64,000 nt of DNA from Candidatus Bathyarchaeia archaeon (GCA_038727135.1 JAVYWL010000001.1:704001-768000); one strand, 5' to 3'. Counted from the stretch's first letter, positions 44,271 through 48,063 are shown. Numbers and translations: made by a program. The notes: generated by a model not told the origin, from the sequence alone.

Positions 44271-44791
44271 AGCACTTTCTCCTTCACAATTGATAGAATG
44301 TCTTCCGGCTTAATCACCGAAAGCCCGGTCAACCCGCCGATAACTTCGATTAGGAGAATCTTGTCAGGCTTGTTTAGGTCCACTTTGCGTTCAATGTTGG
44401 CTGCTGCCGCCTCAATAATGTCCCTTGTTGAAGTTTCCGTGAAGCGCTTCTCAACGGTAATCCTGAAAGTTTCGTTTTTGCCGATTTTTGAGCTTAGTTC
44501 TATGGCTGCCCGCTGGATTTCCCCCAAATCTGTGCGGATAACCTTCTCTATTGGGATTATGCGCAGTGTATAGCGGAACTCGTAGGGGCGTTCTCGGAGA
44601 ATCTGCCTAAACTTTTCAATAACTTCAAAGGGGTTGAAAGCCGTTTTTGCTGCAATTAAACCAGCCACTCCAGTCTTGTCCACAACAGGTGCCGAGTCTC
44701 CGATCTCGCCAAGCAAATACCAAAGTTCGGAGCAAGCCTCATCTTCGTTTCCTCTTGAAGTTGTGGCTAAAAGGTTGAAGTCCCTAAGCAC
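44267..44791 (-). CDS. Stand-alone THUMP-domain protein (Tan1-like)
   Basis: NLLAT..RG.E, TFRITVEKR, KVDL.KPD..L.IE. Confidence 0.85.
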   Translation of the reverse strand: MLRDFNLLATTSRGNEDEACSELWYLLGEIGDSAPVVDKTGVAGLIAAKTAFNPFEVIEKFRQILRERPYEFRYTLRIIPIEKVIRTDLGEIQRAAIELSSKIGKNETFRITVEKRFTETSTRDIIEAAAANIERKVDLNKPDKILLIEVIGGLTGLSVIKPEDILSIVKEKVL

Positions 44792-44810
44792 ATAACCACC
44801 CACTATAAGT

Positions 44811-44883
44811 TTTGGTCAGTGCAGGTTAGTTGGCTTTTCACAGCTTTGGAAGGCTCCTAGCCGTCGCCTCACATCATCCCAAA
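44811..44883 (-). ncRNA. Candidate box C/D sRNA with two K-turns
   Basis: UUUGG-GAU-GAUGUG...CACUGA-CCAAA terminal K-turn geometry; guide GGCGACGGCU complementary to 16S GGCCGUCGCC. Confidence 0.6.
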
Positions 44884-44988
44884 TATTACTTCCATAAACA
44901 TGAATTTATCTGTTTTGATGGTTCATAAGGATTAGGCTTAAATTTATGGGCGTAGACTCTATCTTTCCAAAGTTCGGGGGAAGGGCAA

Positions 44989-45942
44989 ACGCCAAAACCC
45001 GTAATCGTTGTACATGGCGGCGCTGGAAACTGGCAGCCAGAACGCATAAACCCGGGACTTGAGGGCGTAAAAAAGGCGGCTAAAACAGGCTTTGACATTT
45101 TGGCTAAGGGTGGAAGTGCCCTTGACGCTGTTGTTGAGGCTGTCGCCGTTATGGAGGATGAAGGCGTCTTCAACGCTGGTTATGGTTCAAGCCTAACAAT
45201 AAAGAAGACCGTGGAGATGGAAGCCTCAGTCATGGATGGAAAAACTTTGAAGGCTGGGGCTGCCGGGCTCTTGCGGGACATTAGGAATCCGGTTAGGCTT
45301 GCACGAATTGTTATGGAGAAGACAGACCACGTCTTCATTGTTGGCGAGGGAGCAGAAAAGCTCGCAAAACTGTTCAACCTTGAAAGGCGGAACCCGCTTA
45401 CGGAGCTCCGCCTAAAATATTATGAGCAGGCGAAGCAAGCCCTTCTGGATGGCAAGTTTGAACTGCCAAAACTTGCAGAACTGGTTAAAAGTCATCCAGA
45501 ACTTTTTGATCTTGAAACGGTTGGCGCTGTTGCCTTGGATTTGGAGGGAAATGTTGCAGCTGCCACATCCACAGGCGGTTTTCCATTGAAGATTCCTGGA
45601 AGGATTGGCGACTCGCCCTTGATTGGATGTGGCACCTACGCCGATAATAGGAGTGGTGCTTGTTCCGCCACAGGCGTTGGCGAAATCGCCATAAGGCTTG
45701 TTTTGGCGAAGACCGTTTGCAACTACATGGAGAGCGGCAAAACCGCACAGGAGGCTGTTGAAGCCGCCATAAGACTTGTTAATGAGCGGATGGCTGGAAC
45801 CTACAACTCCATGGGTTTAATCGCCGTGGACAAGCAGGGAGAAATTGGAGCCGCCCACAACTCTAAACATTTATGTTGGGCTTATCTTAAACCTGGAATG
45901 CAGGAGCCGGAAGCGGCATTAACGGCAAAAATTCTGAAGTAA
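44989..45942 (+). CDS. iaaA: Isoaspartyl peptidase/L-asparaginase (Ntn hydrolase), apparent ACG start
   Basis: PKPVIVVHGGAG upstream of the track start; FNAG.GS, E|TVGAVA, TSTGG, GRIGDSP, SATG.GE. Confidence 0.9.
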   Translation, partial: TPKPVIVVHGGAGNWQPERINPGLEGVKKAAKTGFDILAKGGSALDAVVEAVAVMEDEGVFNAGYGSSLTIKKTVEMEASVMDGKTLKAGAAGLLRDIRNPVRLARIVMEKTDHVFIVGEGAEKLAKLFNLERRNPLTELRLKYYEQAKQALLDGKFELPKLAELVKSHPELFDLETVGAVALDLEGNVAAATSTGGFPLKIPGRIGDSPLIGCGTYADNRSGACSATGVGEIAIRLVLAKTVCNYMESGKTAQEAVEAAIRLVNERMAGTYNSMGLIAVDKQGEIGAAHNSKHLCWAYLKPGMQEPEAALTAKILK

Positions 45943-46060
45943 ACCTTTTAAAATATGGGCGTGTAATCAAGGAGGTTTCTCGACAGCAGTCGAAAGAAAA
46001 TGCTTAAAGCAGTCTTTTGAGGCTCTCACTATGCCAAGCCCACGGTTAGGGGAGGTGAAA

Positions 46061-46135
46061 ATGGTGTTCGAGGAAGAAGAGGAATGGGAAGAGGAAGACT
46101 GGGAAGAAGAAGAGTGGGAAGAAGAGGAATGGTAA
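46061..46135 (+). CDS. 24-aa acidic Trp-repeat microprotein MVFEEEEEWEEEDWEEEEWEEEEW
   Basis: Perfect SD GGAGGTGA at 46051-46058, ATG, TAA, downstream oligo-T. Confidence 0.7.
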   Translation: MVFEEEEEWEEEDWEEEEWEEEEW

Positions 46136-46164
46136 AAACCTTGAAGAAGTTTATGTTTCCCTCG

Positions 46165-46174
46165 TTTTCTTTTT
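46165..46174 (+). terminator. Archaeal oligo-T terminator candidate
   Basis: TTTTCTTTTT 30 nt after the microprotein stop. Confidence 0.4.
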
Positions 46175-46263
46175 AACCCGAAAAGTTTTTAGCACCGCGC
46201 CAATCTGATTTTAGGCTCATATTTATGTTGTGAGACACATAACTAGATAGTTGCTGGTAAACT

Positions 46264-48063
46264 ATGACGCGTGTGGCAGTGTTAGACTCTGATAAGTGCA
46301 AGCCTAAGCGTTGTGGAAAACAGTGCCAACGCTTTTGCCCAATGGTGAGGAGCCACGTTGAGGCAATCCGCTTCGAAGACACAAAACCACTGATTGTTGA
46401 GGCTCTCTGCTCCGGTTGTGGAATATGCGTCAAAAAATGCCCGTTCAGCGCCATATCAATAGTGAACCTTCCAGACGAGCTGGAAAAGGAGTGCAGCCAC
46501 AGGTTCGGACCAAACACCTTCAAACTTTATAGGCTTCCAACACCATCACCTGGCACTGTTCTGGGGCTTCTTGGGAAAAATGGAATTGGAAAGACAACAA
46601 CATTAAAGATTCTTTCCGGCGAGGTTAAGCCAAACCTTGGAAATTATGAGAATCCGCCCAGCTGGAGCGAAATTATAAGATATTTTAGGGGTTCAGTGCT
46701 GCAGGACTATTTCCAGCGGATGAGTGAGGGCAAACTTAAAGTTGTGCATAAGCCCCAATATGTTGACAAGATTGCAAGAGCCGTTTCAGGAAGGGTTGGC
46801 GAGCTTCTCAGAAAAGTGGATGAGCGGGGCGTTCTTGAAAATGTTGCTGAAAGACTTGAGTTGAAAACCATCTGGGATAGACCCATCGAAGCTCTAAGCG
46901 GCGGCGAACTGCAGAGGGTGGCTGTAGCCGCAGCGATATGCAGGGAAGCCGACGTTTACCTTTTCGACGAGCCCTCCAGCTATCTTGACGTGAAACAAAG
47001 GCTTGAGGTTGCCAGAGCCATAAGAAGCCTAAAAAATGAGGGAAAAATTGTCGTTGTAGCCGAACACGACCTTGCAATAATCGACTACCTCTCAGACCAA
47101 ATATGCATATTCTACGGCGAGGCTGGCGTTTACGGAATAGTTTCCCACGTGCACGGCGTTAGGACGGGCATAAACATTTACCTTCAAGGCTATATTCCAG
47201 ATGAAAATATCCGCTTCAGAAAAGAAGCAATAGTATTTCATGAAAAACCACCGACCATAAGCTTCGGAGCTGGAGAAACTCTCCTGAAATGGGATAGATT
47301 GGAAAAGACCTATGAAGGCTTCAAACTCGTCGCCCAGCCAGGAGAAATCAGAAAGGGCGAGATAATAGGGATTCTTGGACCAAACGGCATTGGAAAAACA
47401 ACCTTTGTAAAAATATTGGCTGGCTTGGAGAAAACCGACGATGGGAAAGAATTCAAAGAGCTAACAGTAAGCTACAAGCCACAATACATTTCTGCTGAAT
47501 ACGAGGGCACAGTGCAGGAACTTTTAACAAGTATAGCGAAGGAGGACTTCACATCGGGCTGGTACAAGGCTGAAATCCTCCAGCCTCTTGGAATTACGCC
47601 GCTTTTGGAGAGAAACATAGCCGAGCTAAGCGGCGGCGAACTTCAGAAGGTTGCCATAGCCGCATGCCTATCCAGAAAGGCTGAACTTTATCTTCTAGAC
47701 GAGCCAAGCGCCTACTTGGACGTTGAGGAGAGGCTTAACATGGCGAGAACCATACGCCGAGTAATAGAGGCTAGAAACGCCACAGCCTTCGTTGTTGAAC
47801 ATGACGTTGTCGCTCAAGACTTTATTGCAGACCGTTTAATGGTTTTCACGGGCGAACCGGGAATAAGGGGCGTAGCCAACCCGCCCACAAGCCTAAGGGA
47901 TGGGATGAACGCTTTCCTAAGAGAGATGAATGTAACCTTCAGAAGAGACCCGGTCACGAAGAGACCCCGCGTCAACAAGGAGGGCTCAAAGCTGGACAAG
48001 TATCAGAAGGAGATAGGCGAATACTATTATGTTAGGCATGTAGCCATAACAGAAGAGGATTAA
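46264..48063 (+). CDS. rli1: Ribosome recycling factor ABCE1/Rli1
   Basis: N-terminal double 4Fe-4S Cys motifs, two ABC NBDs (GKNGIGKT, GPNGIGKT, LSGGELQ), RPRVNK. Confidence 0.97.
   Translation: MTRVAVLDSDKCKPKRCGKQCQRFCPMVRSHVEAIRFEDTKPLIVEALCSGCGICVKKCPFSAISIVNLPDELEKECSHRFGPNTFKLYRLPTPSPGTVLGLLGKNGIGKTTTLKILSGEVKPNLGNYENPPSWSEIIRYFRGSVLQDYFQRMSEGKLKVVHKPQYVDKIARAVSGRVGELLRKVDERGVLENVAERLELKTIWDRPIEALSGGELQRVAVAAAICREADVYLFDEPSSYLDVKQRLEVARAIRSLKNEGKIVVVAEHDLAIIDYLSDQICIFYGEAGVYGIVSHVHGVRTGINIYLQGYIPDENIRFRKEAIVFHEKPPTISFGAGETLLKWDRLEKTYEGFKLVAQPGEIRKGEIIGILGPNGIGKTTFVKILAGLEKTDDGKEFKELTVSYKPQYISAEYEGTVQELLTSIAKEDFTSGWYKAEILQPLGITPLLERNIAELSGGELQKVAIAACLSRKAELYLLDEPSAYLDVEERLNMARTIRRVIEARNATAFVVEHDVVAQDFIADRLMVFTGEPGIRGVANPPTSLRDGMNAFLREMNVTFRRDPVTKRPRVNKEGSKLDKYQKEIGEYYYVRHVAITEED

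Follow-up and report, generated by a model that had tools for sequence, protein, structure and literature searches.

ABCE1, the ribosome-recycling ATPase, is essential and universal in archaea and eukaryotes. To our knowledge, the control of the ATPase cycle, small-subunit release, and iron-sulfur (Fe-S) maturation of the archaeal enzyme is not settled. In a 64,000-nucleotide stretch of the genome of a Candidatus Bathyarchaeia archaeon (GCA_038727135.1, JAVYWL010000001.1:704001-768000; the whole stretch is hereafter called the window), the gene for ABCE1 is preceded by a micro-open reading frame (micro-ORF) that encodes a peptide rich in Glu and Trp. This micro-protein is probably a previously unknown helper of protein synthesis.

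Several described systems offer points of comparison. The acidic tail of the stalk protein aP1 is reported to bind a cavity in nucleotide-binding domain 1 (NBD1) of archaeal ABCE1 and to activate the ATPase (PMC6125642). The same peptide site in NBD1 that takes the aP1 tail in archaea is reported as the place where the N-terminus of eIF3j sits in eukaryotes, this N-terminus having been placed in the NBD1/NBD2 cleft region of eukaryotic ABCE1 (PMC7780240); in the acidic motif of eIF3j, a conserved Trp is described as docking in a hydrophobic pocket of the partner (PMC2824034). Rli1/ABCE1 is reported to be supplied with Fe-S clusters via the adaptor Lto1, for which the C-terminal Trp is critical, and the same account describes a general Fe-S client signal, [LIM]-[DES]-[WF]-COO-, which it gives as absent from archaeal client homologs (PMC10245660). 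This signal of the cytosolic iron-sulfur assembly (CIA) system is reported to be read mainly via the aromatic ring and the carboxylate, with a basic pocket located mainly on Cia2 (bioRxiv 10.64898/2026.04.06.716496). Finally, N-terminal acidic runs are reported to cause intrinsic ribosome destabilization, a process to which, according to the discussion in that report, ABCE1 is unlikely to be recruited (PMC12673854).

The micro-ORF is bounded by an ATG at 46061 and a TAA at 46133-46135, as read from the window sequence (Table 1). The predicted product contains 16 Glu and 1 Asp, so that 17 of its 24 residues are acidic; Trp occupies positions 9, 14, 19, and 24, and Val-Phe occurs at the N-terminus only. 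The peptide has no Cys, no Lys or Arg, and no predicted fold. Congeners carry AGA/AAG-GTG or AGA-TTG at the place of the window's ATG-GTG, and since only the GTG or TTG is kept there, the true start may be the GTG. The distance from the micro-ORF stop to the ABCE1 start is 128 nucleotides (nt) in the window. No other acid/Trp-dense ORF occurs in the 1.55-Mb genome. The initial annotation had reported TATA-like elements, a Shine-Dalgarno (SD) sequence, the 24-residue acidic/Trp ORF, and an oligo-T tract, all of which are present at their positions, and had called the micro-ORF separately punctuated; it does have its own SD, start, and stop, both in the window and in relatives.

Table 1. Features of the micro-ORF/ABCE1 locus (window positions unless a locus is named)
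Feature	Position	Strand	Remarks
Micro-ORF with stop	46061..46135	+	Encodes MVFEEEEEWEEEDWEEEEWEEEEW, 24 amino acids (aa); 23 aa if the start is the conserved GTG at 46064
Shine-Dalgarno GGAGGTGA	46051..46058	+	Read directly in the window
TATA-like element TTTTAAAA	45946-45953		Conserved within the genus only (relatives' alignment)
Palindrome TCGACAGCAGTCGA	45980..45993	.	Just upstream of the micro-ORF candidate promoter; conserved in family-level alignment
TATA-like element ATGCTTAAAG	46000..46009	+	About 55 nt before the start codon; CTTAAAG at 46003-46009
T-rich tract GTTTTCTTTTT	46164..46174	+	After the micro-ORF stop; conserved within the genus
Second TATA-like element CATATTTATG	46218..46227	+	About 40 nt before the ABCE1 start; conserved within the genus
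ABCE1, ribosome-recycling ATPase, 599 aa	46264..48063	+	ORF; closest solved relatives archaeal/eukaryotic ABCE1 (E ~1e-224); Fer4_RLI domain
Asparaginase_2-family gene	45100..45942	+	Upstream neighbor in Bathyarchaeia only; PF01112 in the L027 homolog
Zinc-ribbon protein, 95-103 aa, acidic C-terminal tail	L097 2258-2566; L065 1750-2034	+	Divergent from the micro-ORF

A DNA search with the window locus matched 33 of 41 relatives, and at the family and order level the matched part was the micro-ORF itself; each match that was fetched and translatable contained an open frame of Glu/Asp runs and Trp, closing in Trp-stop. An alignment of 16 relatives retains the start codon and, throughout, the SD, and the micro-ORF is the best-conserved stretch between its two flanking genes. 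All nine relatives that group with the window (L003-L011) keep a 22-aa core unaltered while the intergenic flanks diverge. Fifteen distinct DNA versions of this identical core vary at 15 columns, 14 of them third codon positions and one in the stop codon, and no residue is changed by any of them. Because the 15 versions were chosen by their identical peptide, the unbiased coding evidence is that of the 16-relative alignment, the loci of which were collected through DNA similarity. The choice between GAA and GAG shifts among relatives while the residues stay, and between orders the Glu codon count changes in steps of whole codons, leaving frame, SD, start, and Trp-stop intact. Of the 42 relatives with a called start, 36 have a motif of the GGAGG/GGTGA type 3-10 nt ahead of it. 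The micro-ORF is a real gene under protein-level selection, neither a chance ORF nor a plain repeat, and it is presumably translated in vivo. The view of the initial annotation that the repeat is kept at the protein level is borne out; Tandem Repeats Finder detects a 15-nt period (4.1 copies, 84% matches), so the micro-ORF is an imperfect tandem repeat at the DNA level too.

The constants of the family are a short hydrophobic N-terminus, runs of Glu/Asp, Trp, and a terminal Glu-Glu-Trp with a free carboxylate. In 42 aligned micro-proteins, Trp 9, 19, and 24 and their flanking Glu residues are invariant or nearly so, the residue before the terminal Trp (position -1) is Glu in 42/42, and position -2 is an invariant Glu. 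Products range from 20 to 41 residues, with the stop directly after Trp. The every-fifth-residue placing of Trp that was first noticed in the window is not kept across the family (spacing 3-9 residues), whereas homologous small ORFs do exist and their frame, SD, and terminal Trp are conserved.

The phylum sampled is the one holding Bathyarchaeia, Desulfurococcales, and Sulfolobales. A strict pattern (WEEEEW then T-R-R) occurs in 50 of its 401 genomes and the reversed control pattern in 0; the former is a lower bound, since four families with a micro-ORF near ABCE1 had scored 0. A motif-first scan of one genome per species gave at least 120 loci, mostly from Bathyarchaeia and also from Ignisphaera, Hyperthermus, Pyrodictium, Thermogladius, other Desulfurococcales, and a Sulfolobales genome, with a few chance matches in bacteria; near-identical loci are found in Bathyarchaeia metagenome-assembled genomes. 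Eighty loci were fully flanked (flank 2 kb), and among the matches listed 73 of these are of the micro-ORF type. ABCE1 lies alongside in 64 of the 73: the micro-ORF is upstream on the same strand in 61 (gap 49-1783 nt) and divergent in three (L097, L128, and L136), and the remaining nine loci show no ABCE1 start inside the flank. A length rule keeps a fourth divergent locus (L120) out of the 73-locus count.

The converse count was blind to the motif and began from ABCE1, which a search located in 110 of the 111 genomes sampled from the phylum. For 67 of these, the first-listed one to five per family in 29 families (the other 43 were not included), the 1.3 kb preceding ABCE1 was scored by composition alone, as any 12-residue window with at least eight Asp/Glu and at least two aromatic residues; a terminal Trp was not required. 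A micro-ORF was found within this distance in 30 of the 67 genomes and 14 of the 29 families; 30 of 30 close in Trp-stop, and 29 of 30 are on the same strand as ABCE1. In a Sulfolobaceae-centered family sample, 26 of 29 ABCE1 loci have a micro-ORF about 45-55 nt upstream, with terminal Trp in 22, Phe in two, and Glu in two. The same composition rule applied near ABCE1 in two other archaeal phyla gave 0/18 and 0/28 (Hadarchaeota-centered and Nanoarchaeia-centered samples). The motif-first and ABCE1-first counts both show synteny with ABCE1 (rli1), which the initial annotation had proposed to test, and they indicate that the pairing persists across lineages in which ABCE1 is 44-56% identical and the other neighbors have changed. 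The family spans much of the phylum and is usually encoded immediately upstream of ABCE1.

Some copies stand apart from this arrangement. One genome (loci L073 and L137) has one copy beside ABCE1 and a second copy elsewhere. At no fewer than six Desulfurococcaceae-type loci (L063, L065, L066, L097, L131, and L141) the micro-ORF is monocistronic, and a convergent ORF of about 170 aa lies after it; these micro-ORFs are divergent from ABCE1 or unlinked to it, with composition and ending as elsewhere. They face away from a zinc-ribbon gene, directly after which ABCE1 comes in L097. The convergent ORF was considered as the peptide's partner and rejected: it belongs to no Pfam family, is not basic (isoelectric point 5.9-9.3), and has no tblastn match in the window's genome.

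The family is neither described nor annotated, as far as Pfam, NCBIfam, exact look-up, and the literature reach, in keeping with the first impression that it belongs to no described family. Six micro-proteins matched no family in Pfam (E up to 10) or in NCBIfam, a weak test given their low complexity, and exact look-up of ten micro-protein sequences in a collection of 15 billion proteins returned 0/10. An hmmsearch with one alignment against 1.84 billion representatives found nothing, and the hidden Markov model (HMM) of another, that of the micro-proteins, scored 0 over four genomes although the gene is present in two of them; profile searches miss even known positives and cannot see this family. 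A 37-aa homolog is present letter for letter in the ESM Atlas, where its nearest clusters (scores of at most 0.80) are uninformative. Full-text literature searches found no description of such a peptide, nor did a search for the locus tag SSO0287. The 2025 small-gene atlas of S. acidocaldarius states that annotation of such genes is still limited, and none of three short Glu/Trp motifs appears in its supplements, which may list coordinates and not peptide sequences (PMC12817955). The family has escaped annotation because it is short and of low complexity.

How, then, does the micro-protein compare with the described systems? Like the aP1 tail, it is flexible, acidic, and closed by a hydrophobic or aromatic residue, and the ABCE1 residues that contact aP1 (P164, Y166, I170, V174, A220, A223, and R227) are kept in the window's ABCE1 and reach at least 90% conservation across 35 ABCE1 sequences taken from micro-ORF loci. 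The aP1 tail, however, uses a Leu-x-x-Leu-Phe helix (the window genome's own aP1 ends ...EEAALEGLGALFG), whereas the micro-protein lacks this motif, has only Trp, and is free-standing and not tethered to the ribosome. With eIF3j/Hcr1 it shares acidic stretches around a conserved Trp and a tie to ABCE1, but eIF3j is far larger than 20-41 residues, has a C-terminal helical dimerization domain that binds the small subunit, and binds the RNA recognition motif of eIF3b through its acidic motif; we know of no eIF3b in archaea. No eIF3j family membership was found in the Pfam scan of six micro-proteins, again a weak test at this complexity, and the likeness is at most a functional analogy.

With the CIA signal the micro-protein shares a free C-terminal Trp or Phe, an acidic residue at -1, and a connection to ABCE1. 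Lto1 is reportedly a folded deca-GX3 protein that works with Yae1. The residue at -2 is Glu in the micro-protein and aliphatic (Leu, Ile, or Met) in the CIA signal, which is also reported as specific to eukaryotes (PMC10245660). As judged from its sequence, the micro-protein is a member of none of the aP1 tail, eIF3j, and CIA-signal systems.

The LysW carrier is likewise a small, very acidic archaeal protein with Trp in an acidic tail, and at a few loci (L154 and L025) a zinc ribbon is combined with a Glu/Trp tail. LysW uses a terminal Glu; the micro-protein, by contrast, has no zinc ribbon, ends in Trp, and has no Lys/Arg biosynthesis neighbors. A LysW-like carrier is rejected on account of the missing zinc ribbon (no Cys, Pfam 0) and the wrong terminal residue. 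Zinc-ribbon proteins with a Glu/Trp tail closing in a WEEEEW-type Trp-stop were observed at L154 100-318 (+), L025 348-536 (-), and L112 1827-2018 (+); the first reaches 25.9 bits against Zn_ribbon_LysW, short of the required 27. They may be fused relatives of the micro-protein or of independent origin.

With modest confidence, we lean toward a peptide that acts in trans as a multivalent acidic-Trp ligand of ABCE1 or its ribosomal complexes; that it binds, and what it binds, we infer. The micro-ORF is a gene that carries translation signals, and probably a promoter, of its own, and its 23-24-residue polyanionic product would form a disordered array of acidic-aromatic short linear motifs, with runs of three to five Glu/Asp and Trp between them. 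The Glu runs would provide long-range attraction to a basic surface, and hydrophobic pockets would receive the Trp side chains, most importantly that of the terminal Trp, together with its carboxylate. The likeliest target would be ABCE1 itself or the 30S/ABCE1 post-splitting and initiation machinery, where the peptide might modulate ATPase activity, release, or factor exchange in the manner of the acidic, Trp-bearing N-terminus of eIF3j or of the acidic stalk tails. A product acting in trans is favored because of the divergent, unlinked, and monocistronic copies, the second copy in one genome, the variable gap, and the T tracts with the second TATA-like element. The earlier suggestion that the peptide may be a ligand for ABCE1 or translation factors fits the synteny.

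Several points weigh against a ligand acting in trans. Copies adjacent to ABCE1 are nearly always on the same strand and upstream (61 of 64 among the matches listed), as a leader peptide would show. Of the 67 genomes sampled from the phylum, 37 lack a micro-ORF in the 1.3 kb preceding ABCE1, which therefore does not need it as a neighbor; family f11, from the window's own order, has 0/5. Because the micro-protein lacks the Leu/Phe motif, use of the aP1 site is an analogy only. The micro-ORF is covered by 0-2 RNA reads, with 0 over its first 13 nt and the leader, and neighborhood alone is weak evidence for a physical interaction. Co-folding prediction from the ABCE1 and peptide alignments scored 0.00 in two runs without controls, which speaks neither for nor against binding.

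The flanking elements bear on how the two genes are expressed. The TATA-like element at 46000-46009 is likely the promoter of the micro-ORF; AAAATGC-TTAAAG is kept in 14 of the 16 aligned relatives. The T-rich tract at 46164-46174 is a candidate archaeal terminator, and the element at 46218-46227 is a candidate promoter of ABCE1 itself; Sulfolobaceae loci have the same layout in miniature, with T-rich tracts and a second TATA-like element between micro-ORF and ABCE1. Four runs of hot-spring/sediment metatranscriptomes were aligned to 45500-46700, three of which gave 0 reads and so amount to no test. The remaining run yielded 14 reads that share one orientation, some of them over the 3' part of the micro-ORF, with a depth of 1-2 in the asparaginase gene, 0 at 45992-46073, 0.7-1.9 at 46074-46237, and up to 4.7 in ABCE1. 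At least one read appears to cross the T tract, where depth is only 1-2, into ABCE1. The micro-ORF strand is transcribed; 14 reads are too few to place transcript ends.

A cis-acting leader peptide, or regulatory upstream ORF, of ABCE1 is a credible if rather unlikely alternative, in which the micro-ORF would serve as a feedback sensor of recycling capacity. The nascent chain, acidic from residue 4, would destabilize or stall the ribosome, or termination would be slow after the final Trp, and the fate of the ribosome (drop-off, recycling, re-initiation, or exposure of the T-tract terminator) would set the amount of ABCE1. As in described leaders, of which mgtL is a bacterial Mg-sensing example with ribosome destabilization, a short ORF with a very acidic nascent chain lies upstream of a translation-related gene. 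The same-strand arrangement (61 of 64 adjacent loci among the matches listed; 29 of 30 ABCE1-first cases), the short Sulfolobaceae gap of about 45-55 nt, the T-rich tract after the stop with RNA reads that appear to run on into ABCE1 at a depth of 1-2, and the reported destabilization of ribosomes by N-terminal acidic runs (PMC12673854) all accord with such a leader. A leader would, however, be expected always on the same strand directly upstream, and among the matches listed only 61 of 73 micro-ORFs are so placed; the four divergent loci and the nine with no ABCE1 in the flank depart from this. At least six Desulfurococcaceae-type micro-ORFs cannot be leaders, because the convergent gene leaves no downstream gene to control, and yet their peptide is fully conserved. 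Neither conserved spacing nor an alternative RNA structure was found: the gap varies from 49 to 1783 nt among the matches listed, the predicted fold of 46030-46270 is no better than shuffled sequences (z -0.42), and only 2 of 50 pairs covary, results that also speak against an RNA switch or attenuator. A TATA-like element of its own seems to precede ABCE1, and the enzyme is considered unlikely to act at ribosomes destabilized by acidic runs (PMC12673854). Unlike in a leader, the residue sequence itself is conserved here, and the invariant terminal Trp and conserved internal Trp exceed the needs of an acidic-run sensor.

A bolder form of the trans-acting proposal, which we hold only tentatively and with less confidence than we would give a leader, is that the Glu/Trp peptide is the ancestral, free-standing form of the acidic-Trp motifs found around ABCE1 in eukaryotes. 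As an eIF3j-like modulator, it would sit in the NBD1 site of ABCE1 and control the ATPase or release from the 30S subunit; as an Lto1-like tag, its C-terminal Trp would bring apo-ABCE1 to a DUF59/Cia2-type Fe-S insertion factor.

The initial annotation had suggested a nucleic-acid mimic or polyanion chaperone for basic proteins. It is doubtful that the micro-protein serves ribosomal or chromatin proteins in such a general way, with no specific tie to ABCE1 and an adjacency that reflects inherited gene order. Its extreme composition (17/24 acidic) and the copies away from ABCE1 in varied neighborhoods would suit this role, and Bathyarchaeia do inherit a whole block of genes (Cgi121-like/THUMP/asparaginase/micro-ORF/ABCE1). 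The pairing with ABCE1 nevertheless survives the change of every other neighbor between Bathyarchaeia and the Sulfolobaceae and Desulfurococcales, in which ABCE1 is 44-56% identical, as well as inversion to the divergent arrangement, and is therefore hard to explain without selection for co-regulation.

Slightly less probable still is a pure Fe-S tag, in which the free acidic-Trp C-terminus would be recognized by a Cia2/DUF59-like maturation factor as the archaeal counterpart of Lto1's [LIM]-[DES]-[WF] signal. The terminal Trp is the most conserved feature of the family (30/30 in the blind phylum sample; 22 Trp and two Phe among 26 in Sulfolobaceae), and the residue before the terminal Trp is always acidic. 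In eukaryotes, binding is reported to be dominated by the aromatic side chain and carboxylate at a basic Cia2 site (bioRxiv 10.64898/2026.04.06.716496), and Lto1 to need its terminal Trp to serve Rli1 (PMC10245660). Against this, the antepenultimate residue is Glu and not aliphatic, the signal is reported as absent from archaeal client homologs (PMC10245660), and a 24-residue peptide has no evident part with which to hold ABCE1. A search for the receptor that covered the Cia2 component found one PF01883 (DUF59/Cia2-type) protein in the window's genome, but its presence says little, as PF01883 was found in 13 of 14 control genomes, bacteria included.

A conserved purine-rich DNA/RNA element or slippage-prone 15-nt tandem repeat with an incidental open frame is highly improbable: the repeat found by Tandem Repeats Finder and the pairing, in the predicted fold, of the GA-rich stretch with the downstream U-rich tract would suit it, but the three-base periodicity of substitutions, length changes by entire codons that leave frame, SD, start, and Trp-stop intact across classes, GAA/GAG shifts that leave the residues in place, and the lack of any Rfam match or fold signal on the micro-ORF all oppose it.

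The further idea in the initial annotation of a modified-peptide precursor was not sustained: a ribosomally synthesized and post-translationally modified peptide is rejected, since no modifying enzyme is a conserved neighbor.

Other features of the locus and of its relatives were observed. The palindrome at 45980-45993 (TCGAC-N4-GTCGA) is a possible operator or hairpin; it is a single site in the genome (a reversed control pattern has two), which speaks against a regulon. The asparaginase gene is not part of the conserved pair, because it is absent upstream in L018, L019, L024, L033, and the Thermoprotei loci. A search of 44500-47500 against Rfam gave no match on the micro-ORF and only a sub-threshold one elsewhere, a weak match (17.8 bits against a gathering score of 55, E 0.24) to the C/D-box small RNA sR36 at 44814-44881 (-), between the THUMP-domain and asparaginase genes.

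Variants of ABCE1 were also seen. In family f34 (G058, G073, G081, G089, G112, and G144; loci L250, L251, and L283), the ABCE1 match begins at query residue 54 in a frame of 785-926 aa, which points to an extension of the N-terminus by about 190-330 residues or to a fusion in place of part of the Fe-S domain; no Glu/Trp stretch occurs in this extension. About 2.7 kb past the window end, at G000:C1:770710-770805 (-) (L188), a second Fer4_RLI domain (50.7 bits) lies in a 179-aa frame predicted to be a stand-alone protein with an ABCE1-type Fe-S domain.

In two of the three Sulfolobaceae-sample genomes without a Glu/Trp ORF (L202 and L204), a short Lys/Arg-rich frame is found there instead, about 100-250 nt upstream of ABCE1. 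In G034, a family f11 genome (L030), the micro-ORF sits between the hydrogenase-maturation genes hypD and hypF. A contig labeled Krumholzibacteriaceae bacterium (L089) carries a Bathyarchaeia-like asparaginase gene (64% identical) and a micro-ORF, its flank ending 198 nt after the stop, short of ABCE1, and one labeled Nanoarchaeia (L117) carries a micro-ORF, an ABCE1 75% identical to that of the window, and Cgi121-like and THUMP genes; both are probably mis-binned.

If the trans-acting reading is correct, the micro-ORF would encode an unrecognized archaeal ribosome-recycling component, a gene of about 75 nt that no annotation pipeline has picked up, not even in genetically tractable relatives of Sulfolobus; S. 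acidocaldarius is a tractable model of the Sulfolobales. A whole gene family can thus escape annotation, and a chemically synthesizable peptide of about 25 residues, kept beside ABCE1 across lineages in which the enzyme is 44-56% identical, would be a concrete and inexpensive candidate for the missing factor.

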